44,795 nt of DNA, taken from a virus. The stretch spans positions 1 to 44,795 of the IMG/VR virus record IMGVR_UViG_3300034196_000067; one strand, written 5' to 3'. Numbering within the stretch: the stretch's first letter is position 1; each line of letters begins with the position of its first letter. Shown piece after piece: positions 2,244 through 36,560 of the stretch. The notes under the pieces are model-generated. The model was given only the letters and a program-made list of their open reading frames with translations. It was not told where the DNA came from and ran no database searches. A program made the position numbers and the translations under genes.

Positions 2244-2372
2244 CTACTCCTTGTAGAGAAGAGTGAACTTGCTGCTGCTGGTGTCGAAGACGAGAGAGAC
2301 GAAGACGACGGAGTGCGCGTTGAGAAACGTGACAGCTTCCGTCATGGTCCGGAAGTACTGGGTCTTATACAT
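2244..2372 (-). CDS. Possible small hydrophobic peptide (42 aa)
   Basis: ATG at 2370-2372 is preceded by a near-perfect SD GAAGGAGGAAGC. Product MYKTQYFRTMTEAVTFLNAHSVVFVSLVFDTSSSKFTLLYKE has one hydrophobic stretch. It overlaps the 3' end of 2365..2847 by 8 nt. Speculative. Confidence 0.25.
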   Translation of the reverse strand: MYKTQYFRTMTEAVTFLNAHSVVFVSLVFDTSSSKFTLLYKE

Positions 2373-2847
2373 GCTTCCTCCTTCGGAAGACGTTCTTGAC
2401 GGCCCTGGCTGGTCCGGTGAAGACACCCTTCCCAAACTCTTCCCCTGCCGCGCGGGCAGCAGGCCTGGTCGCCTTCTCCATCTCTCGTGAGATGGTCTTC
2501 TTGAGCATTCTCGTGCTGCTGGGGACGACGGATCCCACTGTGGCGGCCTGGAGTAGGGAGGGTAGGTATTCCTTCTCGATCCGCTTGTTCCGGAGCTTCT
2601 TCGACTCTTCAGGCGTGAGCCGGGCACGCTCGTCAGAAAGGCGCTCGTGCTTCTCTTTCTTCACAGAGCTGCTGAGGCTTGCGCCAGCACCTGCGGCTCC
2701 AAAGAGGGCCGACTTGGGAGCCTTCTCCAGAGCCTTCTTGCCTGCCTTCATGGCGCGGACCTTGAGACGAGAGACTGGGGTGAAGGTCTTAGCGATCTTC
2801 TCCAGTTCATCGAACAGACCGTCGACCAGTTGAGTCTGCATCACCAT
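2365..2847 (-). CDS. Basic Gly/Ala/Lys-rich protein with N-terminal GLFDELEKIA motif (member of the 'FDEL-KI' family; candidate packaged/internal protein)
   Basis: MVMQTQLVDGLFDELEKIAKTF... shares the N-terminal motif with 18308..19207, 34029..34760, 35680..36207 and 36216..36560. Start overlaps the stop of the upstream gene. The antisense track ORF 2396..2833 is rejected. Confidence 0.55.
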   Translation of the reverse strand: MVMQTQLVDGLFDELEKIAKTFTPVSRLKVRAMKAGKKALEKAPKSALFGAAGAGASLSSSVKKEKHERLSDERARLTPEESKKLRNKRIEKEYLPSLLQAATVGSVVPSSTRMLKKTISREMEKATRPAARAAGEEFGKGVFTGPARAVKNVFRRRKHV

Positions 2848-3404
2848 TCACCGTAGAAGTTGTTCACGAAGCGGTACTCAGAATGGATGCCGCCTCCCCA
2901 AGCACTCTCGATGTTGTAGGCCACCTTGAGGCGCTGCTTCTTCTCCTCGTAGGTGTTTCGAAAGAGCTGGATCCAGCTCTGGATGAAGGGAGTCTTGTCG
3001 TTGATGCCGACCTGAATCCCTCCATCCGAGAACTGAAGATGGTTGCGTGTCTGAAGCAGACCTACTGATTCGAGCAGGCAGATGACTGTGGCCCGCACTA
3101 GAAGATGGCGCGATGGGAAGTTCCCGATGGTGTGTCTCGTGAAAGGAGGAGTGGTGTTCCAGTCATCGAGAGCATCGAGGATGGCCCAGACGATCTGTCG
3201 GTTCGAGCTCTCTTCACCCGCGATGAGCCGGTTCAGCTCTGCGTAGTCGCGGGTGAAGAGACGAACCTGGTTCACGAAGTTGTTGAGCTCCAACTCCGCA
3301 TCTGGAACCTGTGCTTTCTCGATGGGCGTGAGAGAAGGAGTGGGAAGCCTGTCACCGGCACCCATGTACCCCGCACCGCTTGGGAGCTTCTCATAGTCGT
3401 CCAT
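2841..3404 (-). CDS. Hypothetical protein (187 aa)
   Basis: Long minus-strand ORF in an operon-like run, translationally coupled to the downstream gene. No recognisable motifs. Confidence 0.45.
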   Translation of the reverse strand: MDDYEKLPSGAGYMGAGDRLPTPSLTPIEKAQVPDAELELNNFVNQVRLFTRDYAELNRLIAGEESSNRQIVWAILDALDDWNTTPPFTRHTIGNFPSRHLLVRATVICLLESVGLLQTRNHLQFSDGGIQVGINDKTPFIQSWIQLFRNTYEEKKQRLKVAYNIESAWGGGIHSEYRFVNNFYGEW

Positions 3405-3413
3405 CAGCGACTC

Positions 3414-3707
3414 CTACTTGCGCTTGGGCTGCTGATTCTTCTTCTCGACAGGACCCTCGTCGCTTGTGGAGAACGTGACGAAGTCCACCGGCTGAGCTTG
3501 GTAGGTACGTGGAGGCGCAAGAACTCGGTGTTCGAGGTTCCACCAATCTGGGAGCCTCCCAAAAGCCAGGACCTTCTTGTCTGCGAGCCGCTGGTCTGCT
3601 TTTGGGATGAACTTGTCGAGCTCCGGGACTTCGATCACTCCCCCGTTCGAAGGGATGAGCTTCTTGTGGAAGTCGAGGACGCTGTCCGTGAGGTTGAAGA
3701 CCTTCAT
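3414..3707 (-). CDS. Hypothetical protein (97 aa)
   Basis: Minus-strand ORF. Its start overlaps the stop of 3704..4126 (ATGA). Confidence 0.4.
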   Translation of the reverse strand: MKVFNLTDSVLDFHKKLIPSNGGVIEVPELDKFIPKADQRLADKKVLAFGRLPDWWNLEHRVLAPPRTYQAQPVDFVTFSTSDEGPVEKKNQQPKRK

Positions 3708-4509: not shown

Positions 4510-5691
4510 TTAGAACTGGCTGACGTTCGGGTACTTCAGGCCCTGGTCGACCTTGTTGTTCACCGGGGCGAAGAGCGGGTCGCTCTCGTCCACCGGGATC
4601 TCGGCGCCGTAGCCAGTGTCGGTCAGGCCCGGGGTCACCGAAGCGGAGTAGAGCTCCAGCTTCACGATGGCGGCCACGTTGCCGATTCCGATGCCGATGT
4701 CCTCCCAGCTCTGCCAGGTGATCAGGTTCGCGATCTTGTCGATGTAGAACTTGACCTGGTTGAGGACGTAGCTGCGGCCCAGGAACCCCGGCGCGGTGAA
4801 GCAGTAGATGTTGCCCTCGCGCAGGATCTCCGTCTTGATCGTCCGGATGTACTTCAGGCCGGTGATGTTGTCGCTCTTCCAGCCCTCGGTCGAGGTCTCT
4901 CCGGCGATCGTCATGCCGACGTCCTGGATGGTCCAGGAGCTCACCTCGTCGAAGTCGGGCTCGGTCATGAGCATCCGCTCCGCACGGAGGTGCCGGCGGT
5001 GGAGCAGCTTCTTCAGCTTGATGAAGTCGGTCTTGAGGACCGGGTAGATCGAGAAGTCGTCCGCGCCGTTGTTCAGCGAGGCCTGGAGAGCGCCTTCACC
5101 CTTCACGATCGAAGAGCTGATCACCGCGCTGGCGTTGACGTTGGTGGCGCTGAACTTGATCGCGGCACCAAGGGTCTGCGCCTGCGCCTGGAAGGCCTGG
5201 ACAGCGGCCTCGGTGAAGAGCAGGAAGGTCCTATCCTCGACGGCCTGGATGTCCTTCACCGTGTTCTCTTCGATGATCTTGGTGATGGGCATCTCGTAGG
5301 CCAGAAGCTCCTGCTCGTACTTCTCGAACTTCTCGCTGGAGATCGTGAAGAAGGGGATCTCGTAGCGGGGCGCCCGAATGAGCCGAGCCGTGGGCTGACC
5401 ACGGAAGGTCATCGCCATGGCGCGCGAGTTGGGCTCGATGTCCACGATCTTCACGAGCGTGTCGTGGTTGACCGAGCGCTGGCACTCAGACCGCTGCACC
5501 GGCTGAGGTGGGATCACCTTCTTGTGGAACGACACTTCACGCAGACGGTCTCGGATGTAGTTCCCGCCGAACTCGGCGATCTTGTCCTTGGCCTCTTGCG
5601 TGGCGACCTTCTCGAAGAAGAGGTCGTTGAGGGCTTTCTGGGGAATCATTCTGGTCTCCTGTTTTGTCGAAAGAGTTGAAGGTCTCTTCAC
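4510..5691 (-). CDS. Major capsid protein (HK97-fold-like), 393 aa
   Basis: Size, composition and context fit a major capsid protein. It is the last gene of a run of low-complexity scaffold-like genes and is followed by a strong terminator. No single diagnostic motif, so the call rests on overall resemblance and context. Confidence 0.6.
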   Translation of the reverse strand: MKRPSTLSTKQETRMIPQKALNDLFFEKVATQEAKDKIAEFGGNYIRDRLREVSFHKKVIPPQPVQRSECQRSVNHDTLVKIVDIEPNSRAMAMTFRGQPTARLIRAPRYEIPFFTISSEKFEKYEQELLAYEMPITKIIEENTVKDIQAVEDRTFLLFTEAAVQAFQAQAQTLGAAIKFSATNVNASAVISSSIVKGEGALQASLNNGADDFSIYPVLKTDFIKLKKLLHRRHLRAERMLMTEPDFDEVSSWTIQDVGMTIAGETSTEGWKSDNITGLKYIRTIKTEILREGNIYCFTAPGFLGRSYVLNQVKFYIDKIANLITWQSWEDIGIGIGNVAAIVKLELYSASVTPGLTDTGYGAEIPVDESDPLFAPVNNKVDQGLKYPNVSQF

Positions 5692-6637: not shown

Positions 6638-7741
6638 TTACACCGTGGTCTTGTCTGCGACGGTGGACTGCTTCTTCTTCATTGCTGCTGTCATCTTGCA
6701 GTGCCGGCACGTACCGGCATCGCTGCACGTGCAGCCCTCCTCGGCAATCTTCGCGAGGAACGCCTTTGCCACTGCTGCTGCGATCTTCACGCCTCCCTTC
6801 GAGGCGCTACGCAGGTTCTCCTGCACCTTCGAATCGTGAGCCGCGGACATGGCCGGCTCGGTGAGGACTTCGGCCAGCTCCTTCTTCCGAGGCGCCTTGG
6901 CTTCCCGCTTGGTGGCGGCCTTGGGCGCGGCGTTGGAGCTGATGAGCTGTCGTCCCGGGTTCGACGGCACTGGAGCGGTGCTGGAAAGAGTCTCTCCACC
7001 CTGCTTGTGCTCGCCACCCAGATGCGCAGCCTCAGAGATCTTCGCGAGGATGTACTCGGCAGCTTCGGACGAGGACTTCTTCTCCTTGTTGTCCTTCTCT
7101 TCCTTCTTCTCGTCCTTCTTGCCCTTCTCATCCTTCCCGAAGCCGCCGGCCATCTTCTCGACCTCCTCCTTCAGGAGGTCGACGCCTGCCTTCTTCCGGA
7201 GGATGTCCGCCGGCTGCTTCTGATGCAGGTAGGCCGGGCTCTTCTCGTCGGTGGCGACAGCGTTGGCGGGCGCACCCTTTGCGTCCGAGGGTTTCTCGGA
7301 GCCGGTCTGCATGGGGATGTTGTGGGACTTGGACTTGTCCTTCTTGTAGGGCTGAGTGCCTCCGACCGGCCGTCCTGTCTGGAGCACTTCCCCGCCCTGA
7401 TGAACCTCTTTGCCCAGCTCGACCGAGTCCGCGAGCTTCTCGGAGGCGTAGTCGAGTGCGGCAGCGAGCTTCTCGACCTCTTCCGGATCGGCAGGATCGA
7501 TGACCGAAGAGCACTTCTCCTTCTCTTCCTCTTCTTCCTTGGCCGAGGGGATGTGGCCGCCGTGCTCCTTCTTCTCGTAGGCCACGAGCTTCTTCACCTT
7601 CTCCTTGTCATCGCCCTTCTTCTCTTCCTTCTCCGCAGCCGCGAGCTTCATCTTCTCACGAGCCGCCTCGATGGTCTGAGCGACCACGTCCTGGAGAGGC
7701 AGGGCCACACCGGCGAGCTTGTTCTTCATCTCCGTCTCCAT
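6638..7741 (-). CDS. Lys/Glu-rich low-complexity protein (367 aa), scaffold/internal-protein-like
   Basis: EEEEEKEKC, KKDEKKEEKDNKEKK runs. Sits in the head-assembly neighbourhood. Confidence 0.45.
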   Translation of the reverse strand: METEMKNKLAGVALPLQDVVAQTIEAAREKMKLAAAEKEEKKGDDKEKVKKLVAYEKKEHGGHIPSAKEEEEEKEKCSSVIDPADPEEVEKLAAALDYASEKLADSVELGKEVHQGGEVLQTGRPVGGTQPYKKDKSKSHNIPMQTGSEKPSDAKGAPANAVATDEKSPAYLHQKQPADILRKKAGVDLLKEEVEKMAGGFGKDEKGKKDEKKEEKDNKEKKSSSEAAEYILAKISEAAHLGGEHKQGGETLSSTAPVPSNPGRQLISSNAAPKAATKREAKAPRKKELAEVLTEPAMSAAHDSKVQENLRSASKGGVKIAAAVAKAFLAKIAEEGCTCSDAGTCRHCKMTAAMKKKQSTVADKTTV

Positions 7742-8200
7742 CTAGATGGCCCCCGCGGCTGTCGCGAGGGGAGGGGGTAGCGAGTTCTGTGGCGACATCT
7801 TCACCGCCGGCATGTCCATACGGGGCTTCGAGTACGACGCTTGCTTCATCGAGGGGCTCAGCCTTGGGAGCGCCTTTGTAACGGTGGAGATCGTAGCGGG
7901 TTGCATGGGACCGGCTCCGGCTGCGATCTTCAAGAGCTCGTCTTCGAACCCTTTCCACATGACCAAGTCGATTGCGCTCGACTTGGTCATGTGGCCGGGG
8001 TCCGCCTTCTGCTCATAGGTGGACTTCGGCTCGTCGTACTTCTTCTTCGCAGCTTTCCGTCCTTCCACAGTGCCGTAGCCGGACGGAGTGTGTCCTGTAG
8101 CGTGAGACTGTTGAGTCGCAATGGCGAACGCAGTGCTCTTATTCATGGCCGGGTTCTTGGCCATGATGTGCTCAGCGCGGTTGTGAATCCACTGCGGCAT
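7742..8200 (-). CDS. Hypothetical protein (152 aa)
   Basis: Minus-strand ORF abutting 6638..7741 (stop/start adjacent). Confidence 0.4.
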   Translation of the reverse strand: MPQWIHNRAEHIMAKNPAMNKSTAFAIATQQSHATGHTPSGYGTVEGRKAAKKKYDEPKSTYEQKADPGHMTKSSAIDLVMWKGFEDELLKIAAGAGPMQPATISTVTKALPRLSPSMKQASYSKPRMDMPAVKMSPQNSLPPPLATAAGAI

Positions 8201-8279: not shown

Positions 8280-9074
8280 CTACTTGCTCTCCTCAGTCTG
8301 CTCGTCCTTGAACTGGTAGCCGGCCGTCTCCAGCATCTCGGTGGCTCGCTGCTCGACCGCAGCCTCCAGCTTCGCGCGCTGCTCGTCGCTGGCGCTGACC
8401 TTCTCCTGCTCCGGCTCCTTCTGGTCGGCGGTCGGATCGATCCCGTTCGCCTTCAGGATCTCCAGAGCCCGACGCTCGGCGAGGACATCGAGTGCGCTGG
8501 CTGACGGCTCTTCCGCGGACGACTGCTTCTTCTTGCTCATGCGGCCAGCAGCGAAGCCAGCGGCGCCGGCAGCACCGGCCGAGTACTTCTTGCCATGCGC
8601 CTTGAGGTGCGCGCCGACCTTGCCGCCCACTTCCTTCGCCCCGCCCTTGATGGCCTCGAACCGGCCAGCGGTCTTCTCTTGCTCCGCAGCACCGATGTTC
8701 CGGAGCTCCTGAGCGTAGGCATGGGCCATCACGCGGCCCAGGTAGTCGGCCTCGGCGAGCTTCTCCTTCGCCTCGGAGACCTTCTCCTGCCCCTCTTCCT
8801 CTTCTTCGCCCTGAGCGGCCTTGGCAGGCTCCTCTTCCTCGGGCTCTTCGACGGCGGCCTGGTCATCGCCGTCCTCGTCAGCCAGAACCTGCTTCGCGAG
8901 CTCTTCGGCCTCTTCGTCGGACATCGCGGCCGGATCGATCTCGCCGTCAGCAGCCAGCTTCTCTGCGAGCTCGGCCTGGGCCAGCTTCTCGACGTCACCC
9001 TCGTCCTGGTTGGTGTGGTAGATCTCGGCGAGTCTCTCGTCCATCGGCATGTCTTCTTCTCCTTCAGCTTTCAA
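8280..9074 (-). CDS. Highly acidic coiled-coil protein (264 aa), scaffolding-protein-like
   Basis: EEPEEEEPAKAAQGEEEEEGQEK, Glu/Ala/Lys-rich helical composition. Canonical position between a portal/protease-position gene and the capsid gene. Confidence 0.5.
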   Translation of the reverse strand: MKAEGEEDMPMDERLAEIYHTNQDEGDVEKLAQAELAEKLAADGEIDPAAMSDEEAEELAKQVLADEDGDDQAAVEEPEEEEPAKAAQGEEEEEGQEKVSEAKEKLAEADYLGRVMAHAYAQELRNIGAAEQEKTAGRFEAIKGGAKEVGGKVGAHLKAHGKKYSAGAAGAAGFAAGRMSKKKQSSAEEPSASALDVLAERRALEILKANGIDPTADQKEPEQEKVSASDEQRAKLEAAVEQRATEMLETAGYQFKDEQTEESK

Positions 9075-9103: not shown

Positions 9104-10831
9104 CTAGGCCGCGTGTGTGGTCTCCCGAAAGAGATCCGCATGTTCGAAAACGGCCGCACCAGCGACCGCGTCACTGCACAACAGGCTTCGATCTTGAAGA
9201 TGAGCGCCCAATAGATACCGCATCGAGTCGGGAGTGAGGATCTCGGCGTTGGCTTTCTTCAGGAACATGGTGCTGAGGCCTTCTCCAAGAACCGCTTCTC
9301 TCAACTTCGGGTCACTCTCTACTGCATCCACTACCTGCGAAATCTTCTTCAAGAAGGAGCGCCGATATCCGTTGTACGCGGCGCTAACCTTGTCCAGCAA
9401 AGGATGCTCGATAGGCGCTCTGGTGGGAAGGACGTTTTTCGCCCCTCTTCCAGCAATCATGACCCGGAGCTGAAAAGGAGTCCCAAGGGCGGTACGTTCC
9501 TTGATGTACTTCTTGAGAGCGACGAAGATAGCATCCAGCGGCTCATCAGAGTCCCGACTCCCCATACCTCCGAAGTCGAAGTCGGGGACCTGTCGGAAAA
9601 CCTTCCGCTCCCGAGTGAGCTGGTTGAGGAGATCGTCTTCGCCCATTCTGCGGAGCACCACATGCTGATACTCGTGGGGCTTCAGGACCATACCAGTACG
9701 AGAGATTGTCCCCAAGACGTCTTGCAGTCGCTTCTGCGCCAGGAAGTCGAGATCCTTGGGAGAGATGTCCGGTTCCTGCTTCTCCATGGCTGGCAAGGTC
9801 TTCATGCCAAAGGAGCTGGAGGGAACCTGCTTCACAATCTCGGAGAGCTTCTGTCTTGCTTCTTTCACTCCAAAGGCCGAAGCGAGCTTCTCGGTATGAC
9901 AAGTGACCTGCTCTGCGCATGAAGAGCAGAGACGCCCACAAGGTCCTCGTAGACCAGAAGCCCCTGAGCACGAAGCGGCTTTGGACAGCCCGTCAGAAGA
10001 CAGGGGCACACCGCGAGAGTCGAAGAGAGAGGACTCCACCACGGTGGGTACCGCGCAAACATTGCCGAGGCAGAGTTGCGCGCCCTTCTGCGCCAGCTTC
10101 GCCATCACCTTGGCCGTCTTGTCGGCACCGATGAAGACGAAGCTGATGTCAAAGAAGCGAGGGAAGATGTTCTTGACGAAGATCTTCTGGCCGTCTGGGA
10201 GAATCCGATTTGGCCCGTAGATCCCTCGGAGTTCTTCCGGAGGACGCATGTGCTTGCAGTAGTCGTCTCGCGTCTTGGAACGATGCAAACACTCTCGGAC
10301 GGAGCACTCGTCCCAAGGAACCCGACACCCCATGCTCACGTCAGGGAAGTCCCCGGACTCGATACGCGCCAGAATGCTTCCCGCACCTTGGCGTTCTGCG
10401 GCTTCTCGATCGAGCTTGATGACGAGCTCGACTCTACGCATCCTGTGATTCAGGACGGAGAGAACTGGATTCCCGAAAGCACGAGCCGGGTCCTTGTTGG
10501 CGTGGTGCTGGAAAGCGTGAGCGTTGAGGAACGTCTGGTAGCCGTAATCCGTTCCTTTGTGAGCCAAAGACTCCCAAGGAAAGTAGTCGGCGTTGATGTT
10601 TGAACCGAAATACTCCCCAGCACCAAGGGCGTTCACTAGGACGTAGAGGTGCCTCTTCCGATCGTCCGACGTGATGGTCTGGATGTACTTGCGCAGCTCT
10701 TCCCCAGTCTCCCAATCGGAGAACGGATCTGCGCCGGCAGTCTTCTCGAAACAACCGGCACTGCCGAAGAGTGCCTGGGCGTAGATGCCGGCGTCCGTGC
10801 GACCGAAGAAGAGTACCTGCTTCTCTTTCAC
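9104..10831 (-). CDS. Large head-assembly protein (575 aa) in the canonical portal/protease position; identity unresolved
   Basis: Long confident ORF with His/Cys-rich segments (HAFQHH, GCRVPWDECSVRECLH, CSGASGLRGPCGRLCSSC). Its position between terminase and scaffold/capsid suggests portal or prohead protease. No diagnostic motif recognised. Confidence 0.5.
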   Translation of the reverse strand: MKEKQVLFFGRTDAGIYAQALFGSAGCFEKTAGADPFSDWETGEELRKYIQTITSDDRKRHLYVLVNALGAGEYFGSNINADYFPWESLAHKGTDYGYQTFLNAHAFQHHANKDPARAFGNPVLSVLNHRMRRVELVIKLDREAAERQGAGSILARIESGDFPDVSMGCRVPWDECSVRECLHRSKTRDDYCKHMRPPEELRGIYGPNRILPDGQKIFVKNIFPRFFDISFVFIGADKTAKVMAKLAQKGAQLCLGNVCAVPTVVESSLFDSRGVPLSSDGLSKAASCSGASGLRGPCGRLCSSCAEQVTCHTEKLASAFGVKEARQKLSEIVKQVPSSSFGMKTLPAMEKQEPDISPKDLDFLAQKRLQDVLGTISRTGMVLKPHEYQHVVLRRMGEDDLLNQLTRERKVFRQVPDFDFGGMGSRDSDEPLDAIFVALKKYIKERTALGTPFQLRVMIAGRGAKNVLPTRAPIEHPLLDKVSAAYNGYRRSFLKKISQVVDAVESDPKLREAVLGEGLSTMFLKKANAEILTPDSMRYLLGAHLQDRSLLCSDAVAGAAVFEHADLFRETTHAA

Positions 10832-15758: not shown

Positions 15759-15776
15759 CCGACAGGAGTCCTCATC

Positions 15777-23667: not shown

Positions 23668-26600
23668 TTAGTAGGCGAACGGCTTCTTGCGAGTGACTTC
23701 CTTCGGAGGAGCCCCGAACTCCTTGCCGTAGGCGATTCCAGGAATGGGGTGAGCGCCGTGGATGTCGCTCTTCCACGCCTGACTGGCCCCTCGCTGAAGG
23801 GTCTGCTTGAGGCGCTGGTAGTTGAGGCGAGCCATCCAGTCGGTAGACTGGTTGGGGATGTTTCCAGAGCCAGGAAGCATGGGCTCGTGTGTGATTGGCT
23901 GCTCGTGCGTCTTGCCTTTGTTGTTGCGGTTGAACTCCTCCACCAAGGAGTGCGGAACTACGTCTCCTGGATCCCACTGAGAGCTGCCAGGGTCCTTGAT
24001 CCGAGTGTAGTTGGTGAGGCTTCGAACCACGAGCTCGATGTTACGTGGCCGGACGTTTTCGTCCTTGTAGAGCTTCCTGTAGAGCTCGTCGACCAGGTGG
24101 CGCTGCACCCCATGCATGTCCTTGGTGATGTGGAGGAGCTCCTTCGGGTGAATCGGAGCCATCTCATGAGACAAGCTCTCGCCTCGACGCACCTCCGCTC
24201 CAACCACAAGAGCAGGGTTGATTTCTCCTTCTCGAATGTGGTGGTCGATCCCGTTGATGGTAACGACGTGGCCACCAAGACCGGGGTCTGGCTTGATGCC
24301 TGTGACGGTTCCTGTGGTCTTGGCAAGAATGGCTGACCCCTTCAAGATCTTCGGCATCTTGAGTAGGTCCTTCAGTCGTTGAATCCTGGAGACGGAACCA
24401 CCTCCACGGCCCGACGCGATACCTCCGGTGTGGAAGGCATCCATGGCGAGCTGAGTCGCGGGCTCGCCCAAAGCTTGTCCAGCGAGGACGCCGATGTTGG
24501 TCCCCACCGGATGGAGCTTCCCATTCTCATTGAGGCCGAAACACTTAGAGCAGACACCTTCTCCGTGCTGGCACTTGAGAGGGGAGCGGACTTGGATCTT
24601 GGCGTCCTTCCCAAGAACCTGACGCAGGCGATCTACGAGAGCAGGAGTGACCTGTTCCCCCGCCTTGAAAGGCCCGTGGTCCTTGGCCAAGAACCGATCG
24701 TAGACGTCGAGATGGTAGGGATCCTTGGGGTCGAGAGGCATCAGGATGCCGTGCTGCGTTCCACAGTCCTCGCTCGTGATGAGCGTCGAGATTGTGGAGT
24801 TGATGATGTCCTTCGTCATCGCGCCAGGCTCTCTCGTACCGCTGGCGCGCTGGAGAGTTCCCTTGCGGGCGCCGTGCTGGGCGAGCCAGTAGTCTCCGAC
24901 GTCGAGCCCCTCTCCGTAGGACCTGGTGATGGGGAAGGGAACCACGCGGCCCGTAGAATCCTGCACAAGCATCGGGGCTGCGATCATCTGTCGAAGCTGC
25001 TCTGGTTTTCCACGCGCACCGGAGTAGACCATGGCGCCGAGGTGGCTACCTTCTTTTGGCAGCCGCACTCTCGCTGCGGCGTCGAGCTTCTCCGTTGCCT
25101 TGGAGAAGATCTCCACCAGCTTCGCCTCCCTCTCCCATGAATGAAGAGACGGGTCGATCTTTGCTGCTTGATGCTGCGCCTCCGCTACGATCTGGTCGCG
25201 CTCAGGCAGAGGAGCAAAGTCCTTCAGACTGAGAGAGAACCCGTGCTTGAAGGACTGCTCAGTACCCAGATCCTTCAGGTTGTTCACCACCTTGTCGAAC
25301 TCTCCAGGATGCTTCTTGGCGAGCTCGGTGACAATGGAGCCCATTGGCTTCTTGGAGATCTCGAACTCGGGGTCGTAAAGCACTTGCCCCCGCATCGCGA
25401 AATCCCGAGGAAGGCGGGATTCGATCCGTAGACGGCCAAGCGTAGTAGGCCGGTTCCCGACTTGTTCGACTCGGACTACATCTGTGTGAGTCAGGAGTCC
25501 TTTGTCGACCAGGTCTGAGAGCTCATCGACGGTCTTCACGGTCTTGCCGGAATCCTTACCCCATTTGGAGATGAGGTGAAGGCCGAGCAGGAACTCCTGG
25601 GAAGGGATGTGCATCGCGCCGTAGGTCGTGGGAGAGAAGAGGTTCCGTGAAGGGAACATCTTCTTCGCCTCTTCCACCGCTTCTTGGGAAATAGGGACGG
25701 TGCCCGCCATCGTATCGCCGTCGAAGTCGGCGTTGAAGCCGCCACAGACCAGCGGGTGGATCTTGATGGCCTTGCCTTCCACCGTCTTGGGGCGGAACGC
25801 TTGAACCGAGAACTTGTGCAGAGCCGGATCTCTTTTGAGAAGAAGGGGTCGATCCTTCATCACCTCGTCGAGAGCCTTCTTGGCATGATCCGACTGTGCC
25901 TTCATCTCGGACATAGCTTGAGAAGGCGTGTATCCGTAGCGCGAGTGCATATGCGCCACGACGAAGGGCTTGTAGAGCTCCATCGCGGCCACACGGGGAA
26001 GCCCGATCTCGTCGATGTGAAGGGAAGGTTCAGGGACGATGGTGGACCGAATTGACAGGTCCTGCTTCCGCTTGACGAGCTTCTCTTGGAAGTACCCCTC
26101 CTTCGGCTGATCTCCACCGATGAGGTCCACAATACCCTTCAGCTCTCGGTTGTCGAAGCTCTCCTTGTCGTAGATGGGTGTGTAGTCTCCGACAGCCTGT
26201 AGAGCCTTCATGCTGTTCCAGAGCTCGCCGCGGAGCTCGTGGACCATCTCATGCCCATACTTCTCCGCAGGCATGACCTTCATCTTCTCATTCACAAGAC
26301 CCACGGTCTTGTAGAGGTCGTTGAGAGAGCTCTTCGCCACATCACCGCGTGCCGTGGGAGTCACTGGACGGAAAGCAGCCGGCAGGACCGGGATGTTTTG
26401 AAGCACGTAGGCCTCGTGCGGCTTCATGTCGAGGTCCTTCAGTGCCAGAAGGTACTTGAGCGTGCGGTTGCTCTGGTCGCGCTTCGAGCCTCTCTTCGTA
26501 GGAAGCTCCTCCCGCAGCTTCTTGATCTCCTCTTCGACGTTGACGCTCTTCAGAGCGTCTGCGATGGCTCGACCCCCCACCTTCCCGTCGAGGGTGCTCT

Positions 26601-29600
26601 GCCCTGACATGATCTTGTCCACTTCCTGGACGGAGATGTCGCCATGCTTGAGGGAGAGAAGAGACGGGATGGGGCCCTTGTTCTGCTTGTCTCCGACAAA
26701 GAGCGGATTCGGCACCGGCTCATGGAGCTTGATGTAGCTCCACTTCTCGCCGCGGGACCCGACGATAGCAGGATCGAACAGACCGCCCTTCTCAGGCTTG
26801 AAACCCTTGGAGGTGAAGAGCAGAGGTTTGCGGATCTCGTTCTTACCGTTGTCAGCGATCTTCAGGACCTCGCGATCCGTCATAGGCACCAGCCGCATCG
26901 AGGTGCCTTCCTTGCGAACATCAACGCCGAGGCCGCGAAGCAGTCCTTCGAATTTGGTGTATGCGAAGGGGATCTTCGGAGGAGGCGGCTCTCGTCCTTC
27001 TTGAATCATCCGCCAGAAGTCGACGCCCTGCATGTCTGCTTTGTAGGTCGTCATCTCCCGAAGGTTGTGACGCGCGTTGTGTCCGAGGAGAGAGTAGAGC
27101 TCAAGGGAGCCGAAACCCTGGCCACCAGAAGCCCCGCCCTTCACTGGCTGCATGTCCTGATCGTATTTGTACGGGCGATCGGAGAGGTCCGAACCTCCTC
27201 CGCGCACTACCAGCTTCTTCTCGACCTGGTGCTTCAGCTTGAGAAGGTGTTGAGGGCCGACGAGGATCTTGCCCAGAGGGCGTCGACGATCAGATGGGTC
27301 GAAGACTTCCTCTTCGTCAGACAAGCCATGCTTCGCAAGCTCGTCCACCACCTGCTTGCGATAGTCGTGTCCTGATCCAGCGAAGTTGTTCACGAAGAAG
27401 GGGGAGCCGGTCTTCTCTGCCACTTTACCGGCAGCAGTCTCCAAGACCTGCCCGATGTTCATACGAGTAGGCACGCCTGATGGGTTCAGGAGCACATCAA
27501 GAGGACGGTCTGTCCCATCCGGCTTCTTCACGAAGGGCATCTCGTGGTCCGGAAGGATCTTGGTGATGATGCCCTTGTTGCCGTGGCGTCCGGAGAGCTT
27601 GTCGCCGATCTCAGCAGCTTCCTCGGTCTTCACGAAGACCTTCACGCTCTTGCCGTTCGGACTCTTCACAACTCGCGTGACGATGCCCGGGTAGTCACTG
27701 TCCCAGGTGAGAGACTTGTCCTTCCATGGCTTGATAGCCTTGTTGCCGAATCTCTCGACCATGATCTGACTCTTCACCTTGTTGGGAGTCAGACACGTAG
27801 CGAGAACCTGCCCGTTCGTTACCCTAGAGCCCTCCTTGATGACGCCATCGTCATCCAACATGGAGAGCTTATCTTTCGAGTGGCTCGTCGCCTTGTGTGA
27901 GGCGTAGGACATCCACTTCTTCTTTGAAGTAACGTCCTCTTCCGGCGCCACATCCATCTTCAGCTTGTGCAAATGCTCGCTGGTGAGCTTCTGAGAAGCC
28001 GACTCAGAGATGACGATACCGTCTTCGAAGTTGTACCCTTTGTAGGGAATGTAGCCGACGTGGAGGTTCGTCCCTAGGGCCAGAGTGCCGTTTCGAGTGA
28101 AGTTCGAGTCGGCCACCACCTGCCCAGCCTTCACCTGGTCCCCGACCTTCACCACCGGCTGGGAGTGCAGCATGGTAGTCGGATCATTCAGCGGGAAATG
28201 GTTGTAGAGCTGAACCTTGTGCTCAGTCTTGCCGTCGTGGACGTGGACCCCGTCCGCAGTGATCTTCGTCACCTTGCCATCCACAGGAGCTCTGTGGGCC
28301 GCGAAACTCGTGCCGATGAGCTTCTCGAAGGAGTGGGTTGGGTTGTCCGACCGCACCAGGCTCTGCACGAGAGGGGCTTCACGGTTCTTCAGCGAGATGG
28401 CCTGTTCCATCTGCTTGTCGGCCATCGAAGCGCGGTTGCCTTGGTCGCAAGGAAGGAAGGGGATGAGGTTCGATGTGTAGCTGAACATCGCCTTCGCCGT
28501 TGGCATGAGGAAGTCTGCCTCATGGTAGGGGCGCCGACTGATGTCCCCACCAGGCAACTTCACCTTCACTTCTCTGGCGATGGGAACGTACTTGCCGTCG
28601 ACCTTCTTCACCTGATCAGGCAGCACCACCATGGCCGTGTGGAACTCGGGAACAGTGACATCCTTGAGCTTCCCGGTCTTGAGATCCACGACGGTGGTGC
28701 TGAGGCTCCGACCCTCCTTGCGAACACCAGAACCGAGGTGGAGCGTGATGCCTGTACGCTCAGACTCTGGGGTATGCATCGGATCGAGGAAGGCGAAGTG
28801 AGAAGGGTTCACCCCCTGCATCTCCTCACCGACCTTCTCGGGGTCCTTGATACCACCGTAGTCCTTGGCGATGACGGTAGTCTTGAAGTTCCCTGAGAGC
28901 ATCTGTACTGGGTTCGTCTGCTCACTGCGTTCGGAGACGTTGCCGCCTTGGGTGAAGAATTCCTTGATGGGACGGTTGAAGAGATCTCCGCCCTGCATGA
29001 TCTCGGAGATGACGTTCTTTCGTCCGATGGAGAGCAGGACCTTGTTCTTCACTCTCTTCTTGAAGTTGTTCTTGTCGAGCTTCTCTGGAATGAAGTCCTC
29101 GACGTGAACGACTTCCTTGAAGATCAGGCTGTCACGATCATCAGGCTCTACCTCGCGCCGCTCCAACTTGAGCAGCTTGTTCGATGCAGCGAGAAGAGCT
29201 CCTCCGGTCACCTTCTCGAACGGGTGCCCGAGTGTGGCTTTGGTGGTATCTGGGAAGAGCTGCGTATCGTCGAAGTAGCGGAAGATGTGCTCCCGCATCT
29301 CTTCCATGGACGGAGCTCGCCCGATGTCTGGCGGGGCGGTCTTCTCCCAGAACTTCCGAAGAGCTCGTTCCTCTGCCTCTGGCTGAGCGACCTTGTTGGC
29401 TTCGAAGACGGCTTTGCCCCAGGACTTCTCCATCTCGGCATCGTCTACTCCCATCACCTTGAGAAGGGGGTATGCTGGGATCTTCGCATCCCCCGACTTG
29501 GTCTTGAAGTTGATGAGACTCTTCTTGCGATCGAGGAGTAGGTCGAAGTTCTTCGACCCGCCCTTGCGCAAGTTGAATTCAGAAACCAGGTCTCCGTTGC

Positions 29601-29979
29601 GCTTCACGCGCGTGTAGATGCCGGACTTGAGGCGAAGAAGGTGGTCGACTTGATACTCACCCCCGTCCACGATGAACGAGTAGCGAGAGGTGAGCTTGGG
29701 GACCCGAGCGAGTTGGATGGTCGACTTGGAGATGGGCTTGCCCGTGATGTTGTCGATCAGCTCCATCTCCGCCCGGATCGGCACACCCCAAGTCTGTTCG
29801 TTGTGCTTGGCTTGGAGCTGCGAAGCGACATCGTTCGGATCGAGAGTATCTTCCGCCCAGATTCTCTTGAGCGACAGAGTTCTCTGACTCGTCTGGATGG
29901 GGAAGATGCTGGAAATCTGCTGGATGACGCCATTGGTGAGGGTCGTCATCTTGTCGGCGGTCTTAGGCTCACCGGCCAC
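23668..29979 (-). CDS. Fused multisubunit-type RNA polymerase, beta-like N-terminal half + beta'-like C-terminal half in one 2103-aa polypeptide
   Basis: Beta motifs: [20 protein letters not shown] (cf. GTFIINGAERV..RSPGVYF), [65 protein letters not shown]. Beta' motifs: [24 protein letters not shown] (clamp N-terminus, Zn cysteines absent), [24 protein letters not shown] (catalytic Mg site), [33 protein letters not shown] (trigger loop/F-helix region). GTG start with GGAG SD. Confidence 0.85.
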   Translation of the reverse strand: [2103 protein letters not shown]

Positions 29980-31916: not shown

Positions 31917-34022
31917 CTAGACGCCCGTCGAGGATGCCCGGCGAGTTGGGCGCTGCGTCGGTTGCGGAGTCTTGGCGTCGAGAGGGCTGGGTCCTCTGTT
32001 CTGGTTGATGATTTGGAGTACCAAATTCCCGAGCTGCGGATTCGACATCCGCACCTTGTTGATCTCCATCATCATCGCGCTCTCGCCTTGCTCGTCTCCG
32101 ACCTTCTTGATCTGGTTCGCTGCTCTCTTTGCCAGATAGAGAAGGTTGTAGCCGCCACCCTTCTGACCAAGCTGGAGCGGGCTGGACGCGGAGACAGGAA
32201 CCCCATCCGTCGGCGCTTGCTGCGCGTTGTCTGGAGAGACCGTCGACCCTTCTGGCATTCCTGGAGCGGCTTGGGGACCTGGGACCATCTCCCCTTCCTG
32301 CCCAGACTGCTGACCTCCCATGCCCGGCATCCCAGGCATGCCTCCAGCCTGGGATGGGTCTTGTCCCTCTCCCTGCGCGCCTGCCGGGCCGCCGGCACCT
32401 GCCTGAGCGTCGGCACCCGCTCCAGCGCCTGCCCCTTGCTGGCCACCCGCTCCCCCCGTCGCCTCCATGAGCTCCTGCTGCGCCTTTGCCTGATACCGGG
32501 TCTGGACCATCATCATCTCGCCCTGGATACCGGCTTGGGCGAGCTGCTGCTTCCGCATGACGTCGAGTTTGTGGTCCAGCTCCAGAGCCTTCCGCTCTTC
32601 CTCCACGGCGATGTCCTGGTCGACCTCGGATAGAAGCGTCTGGTCTGAGAGCTTGTCCGCCTGGTTGAGGGTGAACATGAAGTTGGAGCGCTGGAGATCG
32701 TCAGCCATCTTGAAGCGCTTCATGTGAGCCCGGACAATGGGCCACTGCATGAAGTTGGCGATTCGACGGATGACGAAGTTGTTGAGCATGTTCTCGTGGT
32801 CCTGACGGTACCCGATGAACATGTTCTCCAGCATTCGCATCGAAACGTTCGACCCCGAGTAGGTGAGGCCGCCGTAGACGAACTCTTGAGGAACGCCCAT
32901 GCCGGCCACGATCTGTTTCGACCAGACGTCCATCTCTTGGTAGAGACCGAGGGCCTTCCCGTCCCCTCCAATGGACTCGTTCCCGATCGGCACAGGAAGG
33001 ATGGGGAGGTAGTTGTTGTCGTACTTCCACTTGGCGATCTCTGCCTCGATACGCTGGCGCCAAGAGTTCAGGTCGAGAGTGGTGTACGGATCGCTGGTGT
33101 TTGAGCCTGCCTGGGGGAAGAGGATGCGCAGCGGGACGATGTGCTCCTGAGCGATCGACTCCTGAGCCTTGCGAAGGATCTGGAGGTAGAAGGTGTCCTT
33201 CAGGACCGGCAGGATGAGAGGCATGCCCCAGCCGTTGTCCTTCTGGGAGATGATGGGGCGCTTGAAGACGAAGATGTTGTCGTCGGTGAAGCGGATGTAC
33301 TTGTTGCGCCGCAGAGCCTCGACGAAGATGTCAGGGACGGTGTCGAGAACGTTCTTCTTCCCCAGGATAAGATCGTTCTTGAGCTGAAGGGGGAGTTCGA
33401 AGGTGTAGATGGGGTCTGCGCCACCGAAGCCCGGGTCGATGTTGATGTACTCCGGATTCCACCGCATCAGGCGGATGCGCCGCAAATCTCGGTCGTACCA
33501 GTCCAAGACAGCAGCAGGACCCTCCCTCCCGCACTTGTCACAAGAGATGATGTACTCCAAGTTACGCCACTTGTAGTGGATCTTGGAGGCCTTCTCCTTA
33601 TGCTTGCAGCTCTTGCAGATGAGGTACTTGGTGAAGGGGAAGTGGATGGTGACGGCGCAAATGCCGTAGGTGTAGTAGTCGAGCCCAACCTCGATCTGGA
33701 ATGCTCGGTACCGAAGATGCTGACCAAGCAGGATCTCCCACTTCTCACGGATCCGCTGATCCTTCTCGTCGATGACGATCTCGGTGACGGGGTACTCACT
33801 CATCTTGTGGATGACCACGTTGATGAGTGGGTTGACGAGATAGTAGTAGCGGCACCACCTGAGCAGCGCCTTCATCGAAGGCGGCAGATATGTGTGCGCG
33901 ATGTCGAAGAAGGGAGACGGGTAGCGAACACCACTGCGGTTCGTTCCGTCAGCGGTACGTCCGCGCTGTCCCGAGAACCGGGAAGCGCCTCCGTAACCGA
34001 GGGACAGGTTGTCGTAGCTCAT
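31917..34022 (-). CDS. Portal-like protein (701 aa) with Gln/Gly/Ala-rich C-terminal extension
   Basis: Size and general portal-like sequence character (e.g. VPLRILFPQAG, GMGVPQEFVYGG). Long helical low-complexity C-terminal 'barrel-like' tail. Sits amid internal-protein-like genes. Not confirmed by a diagnostic motif. Confidence 0.5.
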   Translation of the reverse strand: MSYDNLSLGYGGASRFSGQRGRTADGTNRSGVRYPSPFFDIAHTYLPPSMKALLRWCRYYYLVNPLINVVIHKMSEYPVTEIVIDEKDQRIREKWEILLGQHLRYRAFQIEVGLDYYTYGICAVTIHFPFTKYLICKSCKHKEKASKIHYKWRNLEYIISCDKCGREGPAAVLDWYDRDLRRIRLMRWNPEYINIDPGFGGADPIYTFELPLQLKNDLILGKKNVLDTVPDIFVEALRRNKYIRFTDDNIFVFKRPIISQKDNGWGMPLILPVLKDTFYLQILRKAQESIAQEHIVPLRILFPQAGSNTSDPYTTLDLNSWRQRIEAEIAKWKYDNNYLPILPVPIGNESIGGDGKALGLYQEMDVWSKQIVAGMGVPQEFVYGGLTYSGSNVSMRMLENMFIGYRQDHENMLNNFVIRRIANFMQWPIVRAHMKRFKMADDLQRSNFMFTLNQADKLSDQTLLSEVDQDIAVEEERKALELDHKLDVMRKQQLAQAGIQGEMMMVQTRYQAKAQQELMEATGGAGGQQGAGAGAGADAQAGAGGPAGAQGEGQDPSQAGGMPGMPGMGGQQSGQEGEMVPGPQAAPGMPEGSTVSPDNAQQAPTDGVPVSASSPLQLGQKGGGYNLLYLAKRAANQIKKVGDEQGESAMMMEINKVRMSNPQLGNLVLQIINQNRGPSPLDAKTPQPTQRPTRRASSTGV

Positions 34023-34028: not shown

Positions 34029-34760
34029 TTACCTCTGGCCCTGGAGCGGAACAGCAGGAATCGTTTTACGTCCCCTCATGCGATCTGCTGCTGCTCCGGC
34101 AAGGTCCCCGAGCTTCCCTCCGATCAGAGAAGCTGAGACACCTCCGGCGAAGCCGAACGGGGCTCCGATGATGCCACCAGCCTGATCCCCTACAAGCTTG
34201 GCCGCTCTGCGAAGTCGGCTATGCCCTTGCCCCGAAGGATCTTGGCTCTTCATCACATCACGAGCCCCGGTCGCTAGACCGTAGCCCATAAGTGCTTTCC
34301 ACCCAAAACCCAGAGGCTTCCCTCCTGGACGGAAAGTGGCCTGCATCCCTTGCTGGAAGCTCTTTTGAGGGGTAAGGAAAGCGGCGGCGGCTTGTCCCAT
34401 CTGACCAGCAGCGGTGGCTCCATAACTGGCAGCCCCTTGAGCTCCTCGCTGGGCCACGTTGCCGATGTAGCCGCCTACATCGCGCAAAAAAGAGATCTTC
34501 TTCAGGCCTTCCCGCGCCTTCTTCTTGTTGGCCTTCCCCCAAGACCGAAGCTCCAATCTCTTCGAAAGCTTTGGAGTGACGCTCTTCGCAGCCTTGCGCC
34601 CTACAGCATGTGCGTTGACACGGTTGTGCAGGTACGTCTGCGCGTCCCGGGACAGGTTCGTCCCTCGTATCTGAAGCATCTTCTTGGAGATGCCGGAAAT
34701 CTTCTCTAGCTCATCAAGGAACGCAGGGAGGGAGTCTCTGATCACGTGGCCCCCAGCCAA
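34029..34760 (-). CDS. Basic Gly/Ala-rich protein of the FDEL-KI family (243 aa)
   Basis: N-terminal SLPAFLDELEKISG. Gly/Ala-rich basic remainder. Immediately upstream of the portal gene. Confidence 0.5.
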   Translation of the reverse strand: MAGGHVIRDSLPAFLDELEKISGISKKMLQIRGTNLSRDAQTYLHNRVNAHAVGRKAAKSVTPKLSKRLELRSWGKANKKKAREGLKKISFLRDVGGYIGNVAQRGAQGAASYGATAAGQMGQAAAAFLTPQKSFQQGMQATFRPGGKPLGFGWKALMGYGLATGARDVMKSQDPSGQGHSRLRRAAKLVGDQAGGIIGAPFGFAGGVSASLIGGKLGDLAGAAADRMRGRKTIPAVPLQGQR

Positions 34761-35680
34761 CTCTTCAGAGTCGTGAGCTGTTCGGCAAGCTGCTTGCGGC
34801 GAATGTTCATGTAGTCGCGCGCCAGAAGTAGCTTGGAGACCTGCATGTCTTCCATACTCTCTTCGTCGGGATGGAACTCGACGAAGGGGAGCTTCTCTAC
34901 TTCCTTCCAGCGCTTGACGATGGGAGTCGGGTCGAACTTGACGATGAGATCGAGGTTCTTCCCCTTACCAGCATTCACCAGCTCTTGTCTTGGCTGAAGA
35001 GAGAGGCCTTGCAACGGATGTAGGCGATCCGTGCAGTTCGAGCAGAATCCGTCATGGAAGAGAGCAGACTCTTCGTTGCCACAATCCTGGCAGCGGTAGT
35101 GGGGCTGGGAGAGTTCGAGCTGCATGAAGTCCAGAGGAGGCGGCACGTAAAAGACGTTCTCTTCCAGCACAGTTGCTGCCATGTAGAGACGAACCTCGTC
35201 GCTGAACTTCTCACGACGAAGGAAGTCTAGGGCATCGACTGCCCCGTACAGCTCTTCCAGAGAGAGCATCTGCATGATGCGGAAGTTCGGAAGATGGTTG
35301 CCGTTCAAGGCATGCGCCACCTTCTCGAAGATCTGCCAGCGGGTCCATGGACCGGTGGAGGAGTGCAGAGCTTGGAGTGCGCGGATCTTCTGCCAACAGA
35401 TCTCCGAGACGCCGGTAGAGAACTCTTGAGAGATCTCTTCGCGAACCGTCTCAGGCTCCCACCGATACCAGTCAGACCCGAAGGCTCGTAGGAGAGAGAA
35501 GTCGAGGACGACGGGGTGGGTGTTGGGACGGATGAACAGGTTCCGAAGCGTGACCGGTTGAGAATAGTCTTGAGTCGGAGCCACGACGCGCTCCTCCGGA
35601 CTACCCTCGGTCGGAGCGGTCGGCTTGACCTCGTCCAAGGAACGAAGCTTCTCGAAAAGGGTGTCTTCAGGAGTCGGCAT
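34742..35680 (-). CDS. Hypothetical protein with zinc-ribbon (312 aa)
   Basis: YRCQDCGN...FCSNC. Start overlaps the stop of 35680..36207. Confidence 0.45.
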   Translation of the reverse strand: MPTPEDTLFEKLRSLDEVKPTAPTEGSPEERVVAPTQDYSQPVTLRNLFIRPNTHPVVLDFSLLRAFGSDWYRWEPETVREEISQEFSTGVSEICWQKIRALQALHSSTGPWTRWQIFEKVAHALNGNHLPNFRIMQMLSLEELYGAVDALDFLRREKFSDEVRLYMAATVLEENVFYVPPPLDFMQLELSQPHYRCQDCGNEESALFHDGFCSNCTDRLHPLQGLSLQPRQELVNAGKGKNLDLIVKFDPTPIVKRWKEVEKLPFVEFHPDEESMEDMQVSKLLLARDYMNIRRKQLAEQLTTLKSWLGAT

Positions 35681-36207
35681 CAGCGCTCGATGATGAAGGG
35701 CTCCGTTGCCTTCGGCAGCTCGATCGACCTCTTGGGCACTGTGTTCGACTTCGGAGTGAAGGAAGAGAGCATCGCGGCCCGTTGCGGATCTTGGTGAAGA
35801 CGGACAGGCGGGTGCGGTAGAACCTTCTTCTGAGCAGCTTGGAAGGCGTGCCCCAGAGCGTCAGCCTTCATGCTCCCGACCGCCGCCCTCCCTGCCCGCG
35901 CTACTCCGCTAGGCCCGAAAGGCAGCCCCGCCTTCTTCATCTTCTTGAAGGCAGAGTGCGCAAGGTGGGCAGCCGAGGGAACGCCGAGAACACCAAGGCC
36001 TGCCAGTTCGTACTTCGCGTGCCTCTTCTCTTCGTCCGAGGCCGGGTTGTTCTTGCGGAGCTTGGCGGCGCTTGGAACGGCGAGAACGCCGAGGCCCCCA
36101 AGCTCCGCGCCGTGAGCTAGATGACCTCCGTGCTGAGCAAGGAAGCCGGAGAGGCCGGCGATCTTCTGGAACTCGTCGGCGAAGGCGTGAACGGTGGTCA
36201 AGTGCAT
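35680..36207 (-). CDS. Basic Gly/Ala-rich protein of the FDEL-KI family with internal tandem repeat (175 aa)
   Basis: N-terminal VHAFADEFQKIAGL. Repeated ELxGLGVLxVPSAAxL units are mirrored at DNA level by ggaacgccgagaacaccaaggcc / ggaacggcgagaacgccgaggcc. Confidence 0.5.
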   Translation of the reverse strand: MHLTTVHAFADEFQKIAGLSGFLAQHGGHLAHGAELGGLGVLAVPSAAKLRKNNPASDEEKRHAKYELAGLGVLGVPSAAHLAHSAFKKMKKAGLPFGPSGVARAGRAAVGSMKADALGHAFQAAQKKVLPHPPVRLHQDPQRAAMLSSFTPKSNTVPKRSIELPKATEPFIIER

Positions 36208-36215
36208 GACGTCTC

Positions 36216-36560
36216 CTACTCTACGCTGGTAATGGCTCTCCCGTACCCTCTTCCTGCTGCTGCCACGCGATCCGCGTCGGCCGCGGCCTTGGCGCCCGAC
36301 GGCTTGCGCATATTCGCCTGTAGTTTCGCGAGCATGGACGACTCTGGCGACAGCTTCTTGACTGGAGGGGACGGACGCGAGGCGCGCGATGCAGAGAGAA
36401 GGGAAGAAGACTTCCGGGGAGGGATGACGATCCCCTTGGCCGCGCGGAGGTTCTGGTGCTCCGTTACGAGCTGCTTCGCGATGGGACTTTTGAGGAGAGC
36501 GCCCGTGAAGGCGATCTTCTGGAGTTCATCGAAGAAGCCGCTGAGGGTCTGGGAGTTCAT
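36216..36560 (-). CDS. Basic Ala-rich protein of the FDEL-KI family (114 aa)
   Basis: N-terminal LSGFFDELQKIAFTG. Start overlaps the stop of 36557..37966 (ATGA). Confidence 0.5.
   Translation of the reverse strand: MNSQTLSGFFDELQKIAFTGALLKSPIAKQLVTEHQNLRAAKGIVIPPRKSSSLLSASRASRPSPPVKKLSPESSMLAKLQANMRKPSGAKAAADADRVAAAGRGYGRAITSVE

Follow-up and report, generated by a model that had tools for sequence, protein, structure and literature searches.

A short modular peptide shared by unrelated late proteins of an uncultured jumbo-phage clade: a candidate capsid-targeting signal

Why should several late genes of one virus, whose products otherwise have no detectable similarity, share nearly the same short peptide? 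The question is raised by a 44,795-nucleotide stretch of viral DNA (IMG/VR record IMGVR_UViG_3300034196_000067, positions 1 to 44,795; hereafter the window, meaning this stretch at its full length), which is part of the 209,442-bp metagenomic contig JGI 3300034159 Ga0370509_0000001. A sequence-only reading of the window had noticed a motif near the N-terminus of at least five proteins and had proposed a capsid-targeting or propeptide signal. The peptide, referred to below as the tag, is a modular, non-random and evolutionarily conserved element rather than the hallmark of a protein family. Its best explanation, which we give a probability of about 0.58, is drawn by analogy with phage T4: the tag would be a capsid-targeting peptide, an address label by which proteins are loaded into the capsid to be injected.

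The core of the tag (D-E-[L/F]-x-K-I), back-translated as GAYGARYTNNNNAARATH, matches the window six times, compared with 0.01 matches expected from 100 dinucleotide shuffles, and all six matches are in frame on the minus strand. Synonymous codons vary among the copies, and the conservation therefore acts on the peptide and is not that of a DNA repeat. When window segments were scored in bits with a 16-column profile built for the tag, the six members reached 22.0-27.4 bits and the next-best segment 4.9. The five genes that the sequence-only reading had named are all at the places it gave, on the minus strand and in frame, with GLFDELEKIA in 2365-2847, GFFDELGKIQ in 18308-19207, AFLDELEKIS in 34029-34760, AFADEFQKIA in 35680-36207 and GFFDELQKIA in 36216-36560. 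Its count of 'at least five' is sound for these genes and fell one short of the total, a six-frame scan having revealed an overlooked sixth copy in 7742-8200 (MWKGFEDELLKIA, 7925-7942). Two 'weaker echoes' that it had listed, in 11443-11706 and 17647-17844, are not members, with 1.9 bits and nothing reportable, respectively, in the profile search.

Numbered from its aspartate, the consensus of the ~17-residue tag is M(-10)-x-L-[A/V/I]-[T/M]-[L/M/V/W]-x-[A/G/S]-F-x-D(0)-E-L-x-K-I-[A/S/G], for example MNSQTLSGFFDELQKIAFTG, with practically no variation at D, E, K and I. The hydrophobic positions (-5, -2, +2, +5 and +6) share one helical face, and the helical hydrophobic moment of several copies lies above that of shuffled peptides.

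Three of the tagged genes (m3, m4 and m5) are located directly upstream of the portal gene (31917..34022, minus strand). The m5 protein (36216..36560, minus strand; 114 aa; isoelectric point (pI) 10.8) carries the tag as its residues 1-17 (MNSQTLSGFFDELQKIA, nt 36510-36560; 27.4 bits) and starts at an ATG that has a Shine-Dalgarno sequence and precedes the Asp by exactly 10 codons; the JGI gene call is likewise 114 aa. In m4 (35680..36207, minus strand; 175 aa; pI 10.2; tag MHLTTVHAFADEFQKIA, nt 36157-36207; 23.4 bits) the ATG is at -10 with the Shine-Dalgarno sequence AGGAG, and two GLGVLxVPSAA repeats follow the tag. One or two conserved hydrophobic GLG(V/I)LA(V/A)P(S/T) elements after the tag are found throughout the m4 family (the window and loci L134, L164, L167, L168 and L224), the window copies being ELGGLGVLAVPSAA and ELAGLGVLGVPSAA. 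Immediately upstream of the portal gene, m3 (34029..34745, minus strand; 238 aa; pI 11.2; tag (M)IRDSLPAFLDELEKIS, nt 34695-34745; 22.0 bits) begins at the GTG at 34745, 10 residues before the Asp; this start overlaps the stop codon of 34742-35680 as GTGA and agrees with the 238-aa JGI call. The C-terminus of m3 is glycine-zipper-like, and orthologues of m3 adjoin the portal gene in 12 related loci.

The remaining three genes lie further along the late region. The m2 gene (18308..19207, minus strand; 299 aa as called, 270 aa from Met 19120; pI 10.2; tag …AMWNGFFDELGKIQ, nt 19067-19117; 24.4 bits) has candidate starts with Met at -11, -6 or -40 relative to the Asp, and its product contains a marginal Gly-zipper 2TM domain (PF05433, aa 82-124) that scores 25.0 bits, above the gathering threshold of 24.2. 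Directly downstream of m2, a 156-aa gene (17841-18311, minus strand) encodes at aa 100-107 the partial internal motif GFKDELQK, without I-A and at a non-significant 4.8 bits, which may be a decayed tag. Downstream of the capsid-protein block, m1 (2365..2847, minus strand; 160 aa; pI 10.6; tag M(VM)QTQLVDGLFDELEKIA, nt 2791-2847; 22.2 bits) has its Asp 10 or 12 residues after the start. The overlooked gene, m6 (7742..8200, minus strand; 152 aa), carries an internal tag (LVMWKGFEDELLKIAA, nt 7922-7972, residues ~79-94; 22.0 bits) between a conserved three-helix N-terminal domain and a disordered linker that leads to a PPPVT-like C-terminal end. An AlphaFold2 (AF2) model of m6 shows the three-helix domain and an isolated 16-residue helix at residues 79-94, which is exactly the leader plus the motif, with the rest disordered. 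There are 75 homologues of m6, the N-terminal ~70 residues being the most conserved part, and in more distant relatives the gene at this position begins directly with the tag. The N-terminal domain (MPxWIHDRAxHIxxKNPxMxKSxAFAIATQQSHATG) matches no Pfam family, and the family alignment (A5) shows a conserved PPP(V/A)T end after the linker. The distance of roughly 10 residues between N-terminus and motif that had been described is thus exact for m3, m4 and m5 and is 10 or 12 for m1; it does not apply to the internal tag of m6, and for m2 it depends on which Met is taken as the start.

The proteins behind the tag are as basic and Gly/Ala-rich as had been stated, with pI values of 9.8-11.2 and a glycine plus alanine content of 19-29% against a window mean of 16.6%. 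To call them a family is misleading, since the six share no detectable similarity outside the tag (no BLAST links). Searches with Pfam and PHROGs assigned no family to any of them, apart from the marginal Gly-zipper 2TM match in m2.

Is the tag a peculiarity of this virus? Megablast and tblastn found no close relative of the window among GenBank phages; at the protein level, relatives of its portal and capsid protein occur in Salmonella phage Arash and three Vibrio phages, and phage G has the portal only in common with it. Via relatives of the portal, the capsid protein and an 835-aa protein, 108 loci were gathered from IMG/VR, on contigs of up to ~210 kb. The window and these loci together yielded 108 profile matches of at least 10 bits, compared with none in residue-shuffled open reading frames (ORFs; shuffled maximum 7.2), so that the enrichment of the motif over chance, on which the sequence-only reading depended, is borne out. 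Nearly all matches (102 of 108) are on the strand of the structural bait gene. A DNA-pattern scan of IMG/VR for F-x-D-E-L-E-K-I-A found 118 loci, against an estimated ~1-2 expected by chance if the collection comprises 5-10 x 10^10 bases, and these loci hold 199 profile matches. Homologues of the window genes for the large terminase (TerL), portal, major capsid protein (MCP), protease or RNA polymerase (RNAP) are carried by 63 of the 118, and the tag is therefore a property of one broad clade and its head/packaging module. The 226 loci of related uncultured jumbo-phage contigs contain 307 further tag copies of at least 10 bits, and the shuffled control, which covered the first 109 of the sources, gave none.

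Other searches returned little. A full-text literature search for the motif strings gave no match in the searchable library, and tblastn of GenBank phages with two tag peptides of 21-25 aa gave nothing meaningful, the 9-residue core being below the sensitivity of tblastn. A 42-column profile run against a collection of 5.8 billion proteins produced 97 candidates and two matches, both short tagged ORFs, with a word-index prefilter that is unsuited to a short motif. No tag copy occurs in the 10 kb of the source contig that extend the window on the tail side.

Across the clade the tag is fixed and what follows it is not. About 200 copies all keep D, E and K; the start codon is most often placed exactly 10 residues ahead of the Asp, with Met at -10 in 41 of 95 unique copies. 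The sequences downstream of these 95 tags fall into 40 BLAST clusters, in which the six window proteins are unlinked. Pfam recognizes SNF2/ResIII helicases, an inorganic pyrophosphatase (InPase, 1e-45), NUDIX, GNAT and Peptidase_C92 domains among 96 non-redundant cargo sequences, together with NlpC/P60, a Zn peptidase, glyoxalase, kinase, DUF5661 and Gly-zippers. The cargo is basic overall (K+R 16%, D+E 8%).

The segment preceding the core behaves differently from the cargo. Leader residues (-10 to -3) are 0.37 identical within a genome and 0.13 between genomes, whereas the cargo just after the tag is 0.071 identical within and 0.074 between genomes. There are also tandem arrays, where each gene opens with the same ~15 residues and then diverges completely: MNFQEAFFDELEKIA occurs four times and MIDFSAFxDExxKIA five times, and one contig has at least 12 tagged genes in 16 kb. 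Likeness of leaders within a genome, on unrelated cargo, is what one would expect, judging from the sequences, if a single receptor per genome read a common signal; duplication of a 5' module could contribute to the pattern.

Some copies depart from the usual layout. Internal tags are preceded by a DUF5661-like domain and a Zn ribbon in L001:2155-3090, by a 'RYPIHDESHARNALARA' domain in L012:8651-9994, and by DUF5661 and a hydrophobic segment in L027:13817-15265; here the tag therefore also serves, or has survived, as an element between domains. L051 and L060 seemed to encode fusions that place the tag at residue ~505 of 567 and ~336 of 398, respectively, but these were rejected as off-frame read-through of the acidic scaffold gene. 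In five further loci (L120, L153, L177, L179 and L215) a second short motif, G(R/K)RP(I/M)RV, follows ~20 residues after the tag (e.g. RKGRRPIRVKR).

Which part of the virus could read such a label? The head locus of the window offers several candidates. A T4 gp21-like prohead protease of 575 aa (9104..10831, minus strand) has an N-terminal assemblin-fold domain (~aa 40-235) with a Cys-rich insertion (CxxC…C), followed by a helical C-terminal domain of ~300 aa; it escaped detection by Pfam, PHROGs, PDB sequence profiles and Foldseek. An invariant Ser166 is its presumed nucleophile. It aligns to Arash gp222, which is annotated as a structural protein, and in other contigs its homologues either have intein insertions (Hint_2, Intein_splicing, LAGLIDADG_3) or contain DUF5661. 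The protease would be the candidate processing enzyme and a possible docking partner. Two charged proteins that flank m6 are probably scaffold or core proteins, and each is a candidate tag receptor: an acidic Glu/Ala-rich, scaffold- or core-like protein of 264 aa (8280..9074, minus strand), encoded between the protease gene and m6 and matching no family, and a scaffold-like, Lys/Glu-rich low-complexity protein of 367 aa (6638..7741, minus strand), encoded between m6 and the MCP gene and matching no family or PDB entry. Both are highly charged and of low complexity, and the 367-aa protein contains an internal repeat (…LDYASEKLADSVELGKEVHQGGEVL… and …AEYILAKISEAAHLGGEHKQGGETL…) as well as tag-like fragments (AFLAKIAEEG). 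In the order of transcription, m6 stands downstream of the protease gene and after the acidic protein, and is followed by the Lys/Glu-rich protein, two small genes and the MCP (4510..5691, minus strand; phrog_2522, E = 1e-6; 28% identity to the Arash MCP). T4 has the same order, from protease through core and scaffold to capsid. The head module accordingly encodes both a gp21-family (assemblin-fold) prohead protease and a separate probable scaffold or core.

Arash, the nearest cultured relative, has the same portal and RNAP neighbourhood and provides a link to virion content. At least three environmental contigs (L118, L127 and L173) encode tagged helicases that are 27-38% identical to the untagged Arash gp217 (E = 1e-39 to 1e-77), and the ~20-residue tag precedes the exact point at which gp217 begins. 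The particle proteome of Arash has the beta and beta' subunits of RNAP as its most abundant proteins, and gp217 was detected in it (PMC10585845). Homology of the tagged helicases to a virion-detected protein may thus be read as an indirect pointer to the packaging of tagged proteins. The window RNAP (23668..29979, minus strand; 2103 aa) is an untagged single chain of fused beta and beta' (Pfam Rpb2_6, 1e-63, and Rpb1 domains 1-5). It aligns to both gp206 and gp216, the separate genes, ~5 kb apart, that encode the Arash RNAP halves, and looks like a multisubunit-type virion RNAP made as one chain.

Taken as a capsid-targeting peptide, the tag would work as follows. The motif would be the core of a ~17-residue modular address peptide of the form M-x-x-x-[T/M]-[L/M/V/W]-x-[A/G/S]-F-x-D-E-L-x-K-I-[A/S], which would fold into one amphipathic helix and bind some component inside the assembling prohead. 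The docking site could be offered by the scaffold/core proteins, the gp21-like protease (through its C-terminal domain), the portal or the capsid protein (on its inner face); of these, the scaffold-like proteins and the helical protease domain are the obvious candidates. Because D, E and K are invariant, a specific protein partner is favoured over lipid. The tagged protein would be trapped in the head and later ejected with the DNA. In the window, the cargo would be six small, basic, Gly/Ala-rich and mostly disordered proteins, comparable to the internal proteins of T4, and the glycine-zipper segments of some of them might insert into host membranes; the DNA-condensing or anti-defence roles that had been suggested for them are speculation. 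The reading draws its support from the fixed N-terminal position of the tag, the many copies per genome, their restriction to the head/packaging module, the genome-specific leader and the co-encoded gp21-type protease. The original capsid-targeting proposal is partly supported: every sequence-testable prediction that it makes turned out as expected, while helix docking, packaging, ejection and cleavage are what we infer.

A secondary and weaker part of the proposal is that cleavage at F-x-D-E↓L would release a 12-residue propeptide. The invariant D-E falls at residues ~11-12 of the tag, and if the tag is removed at all this would be the only universal site, because gp21-type enzymes cut after Glu and the sole invariant Glu lies within the tag.

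Several observations weigh against the capsid-targeting reading. Known gp21-type sites have a defined P3, but the residue at this position of the D-E↓L site varies, and for this reason cleavage at that bond is given odds of only about one in three. The sequence-only reading had suggested checking whether a cut would follow the motif; neither a conserved Glu nor a cleavage motif was found downstream of the tag. For m2, m3 and m6 the hydrophobic moment does not reach significance, and in m6 and a few relatives (L012, L001 and L027) the tag is internal, behind another domain. The large RNAP is untagged though presumed to be packaged, and at least one other loading route must therefore exist. For the putative tag receptor there are candidates only. 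Neither the tag nor an analogous shared N-terminus was found in the ~123 kb of Arash that was scanned (about two thirds of its genome), and the tag-bearing clade has no cultured member. Finally, the Arash virion list comprises 116 proteins, ribonucleotide reductases among them, and is not a clean virion proteome (PMC10585845).

Of the competing explanations, the one that survives best is that the tag serves as a general docking helix whose partner is not the capsid interior but, for instance, the phage RNAP, a chaperone or assembly factor, or a host protein, and that many late proteins are recruited by it without being packaged. An invariant D, E and K and a genome-specific leader fit one specific partner without saying which, the RNAP gene stands among the tagged genes, and the helicase, NUDIX and pyrophosphatase cargo could act on nucleic acids in the cell. 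However, the tagged genes are within head/packaging operons on the structural strand, m6 is sandwiched between the protease and scaffold-like genes, a helicase homologue was detected in Arash virions, and the cargo is mostly short, basic and disordered, as is typical of internal head proteins. Recruitment of this kind is unlikely, at perhaps one chance in five.

The tag could also be a localisation or membrane-association signal that directs proteins to a prohead nucleation site at the inner membrane or to a phage compartment, or that binds membranes peripherally as an amphipathic helix. The amphipathic character of several copies agrees with this, and so do the glycine-zipper/2TM-like segments in m2, m3 and several relatives. 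Lipid-binding amphipathic helices tolerate charge swaps, though, and a strictly kept D, E and K over about 200 copies is not what they would display; soluble enzymes bear the tag, the window cargo has no classical transmembrane segment (highest 19-residue Kyte-Doolittle mean 1.42), and direct inspection of the tag revealed no Sec, Tat or lipoprotein features. We regard a membrane role as improbable. The last alternative, in which the tagged proteins are diverged paralogues of one small head protein that kept its N-terminal helix as a structural element and not as a transferable signal, can appeal to the tandem arrays, which hint at duplication, and to the similar composition of the window cargo, but is essentially excluded, as far as the sequences tell, by fusion of the tag to unrelated Pfam-level folds (SNF2 helicase, InPase, NUDIX, GNAT and peptidases) and by the untagged Arash helicase orthologue that starts exactly where the tag ends, and the cargo is no more alike within than between genomes.

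A bolder version of the capsid-targeting reading makes the tag a clade-wide loading and ejection signal, readable from sequence, in a large group of uncultured ~130-210-kb phages that have a virion RNAP. All tagged ORFs would on this view belong to an injected 'ejectome', with SNF2 helicases, pyrophosphatase, NUDIX, GNAT and peptidases alongside dozens of uncharacterised small basic proteins; the 12-residue propeptide would be released by the gp21-like protease cutting at D-E↓L, and co-evolution would tie the genome-specific leader to one receptor in the prohead core. For this combination we would put the chances slightly below even.

The concept itself is already known. The capsid-targeting sequence (CTS) of T4 is MKTYQEFIAE. 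It is reportedly found on IPI, IPII and IPIII, which are internal proteins, and on Alt, and processed by gp21 (Mullaney and Black, in 1996). In that phage, N-terminal propeptides of 10-19 residues bind the internal proteins, which are basic (PMC9026906), and Alt to the gp22 core, and are removed by gp21 cutting after Glu (PMC9026906, PMC5694885). Like the tag, the CTS is a short N-terminal peptide common to otherwise unrelated proteins of one phage, its cargo consists of small basic proteins and enzymes, and the head module encodes a gp21-fold protease and a separate scaffold/core; the tag has a possible acidic P1 residue at ~12 and the CTS ends in Glu at residue 10. Either peptide would let a lineage load varied proteins into its capsid. 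There is no evident sequence relationship between the two (a comparison by eye), which makes this an analogy and not a homology. The tag is also far more conserved, being recognisable across a clade with MCPs only ~55% identical, and more numerous, with six copies here, at least 12 in some relatives and at least 40 cargo groups; it can be internal, and its packaging and cleavage are putative.

Like the clade, the phiKZ-like phages are jumbo phages that possess a virion RNAP, numerous ejection proteins and a protease of the gp21 type cutting after Glu, and conserved N-termini on their diverged paralogues have been read as targeting signals. SPN3US gp53 and gp54 have identical 15-residue N-termini, and the ejection proteins of phiKZ-like phages have long propeptides (PMC5694885). 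These propeptides differ from the tag in that they are mostly longer than 100 residues, are confined to true paralogues and lack a consensus that spans the clade; the RNAP differs too, being multi-subunit and split in phiKZ-like phages and having its beta and beta' fused in the window. In phage P1, an N-terminal stretch of at most 30 residues of DarB suffices for a large enzyme or a reporter to be taken into the capsid (PMC9024508). The Dar proteins have no consensus N-terminus and a strong consensus defines the tag, so that the tag is not of the DarB type. Cargo-loading peptides of encapsulins are short and conserved, sit on diverse enzymes and dock inside an HK97-fold shell, and encapsulin cargo can be read from sequence. 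Unlike the tag, they are usually C-terminal and have another consensus, and their cargo enters a non-viral compartment and is not ejected. By analogy with encapsulins, and from T4, P1 and SPN3US, the principle is familiar; what appears to be new is the sharp consensus across a large uncultured clade, the copy number and cargo diversity of the tag, and the fact that it co-occurs with a gp21-like protease and a fused-subunit RNAP.

Should the tag be a packaging signal, a list of the injected proteins of a whole uncultured jumbo-phage clade could be drawn up from sequence alone. Anti-defence and host-takeover functions are concentrated in this class of proteins, whose discovery normally requires virion proteomics of cultured phages. 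The tag would in that case be the first peptide of the capsid-targeting kind to have a sharp consensus that is widely conserved, and would suit the structural study of cargo docking in proheads; it would show how new cargo is recruited by fusion of a 17-residue module, and it would offer a portable tag for engineered protein delivery. If it is not a packaging signal, it still is a linear motif, highly conserved and unexplained, on a dozen late genes in each genome.

In the window, nearly all genes from ~300 to 38,100 are minus-strand late genes, and plus-strand replication genes occupy 38,100-44,800. The portal gene was identified by PHROG portal families and by tblastn to the Arash portal (E = 7e-69); downstream of it is the RNAP gene, with a few small opposite-strand ORFs in between. 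The large terminase (13956-15842) is part of the minus-strand late region, in which two plus-strand islands (15743-17606 and 13144-13826) are embedded. An RNase HII (16457-17104, a JGI Pfam call) adjoins the terminase in one of these islands, and a weakly matched HTH_17 protein lies in the island on the other side of the terminase.

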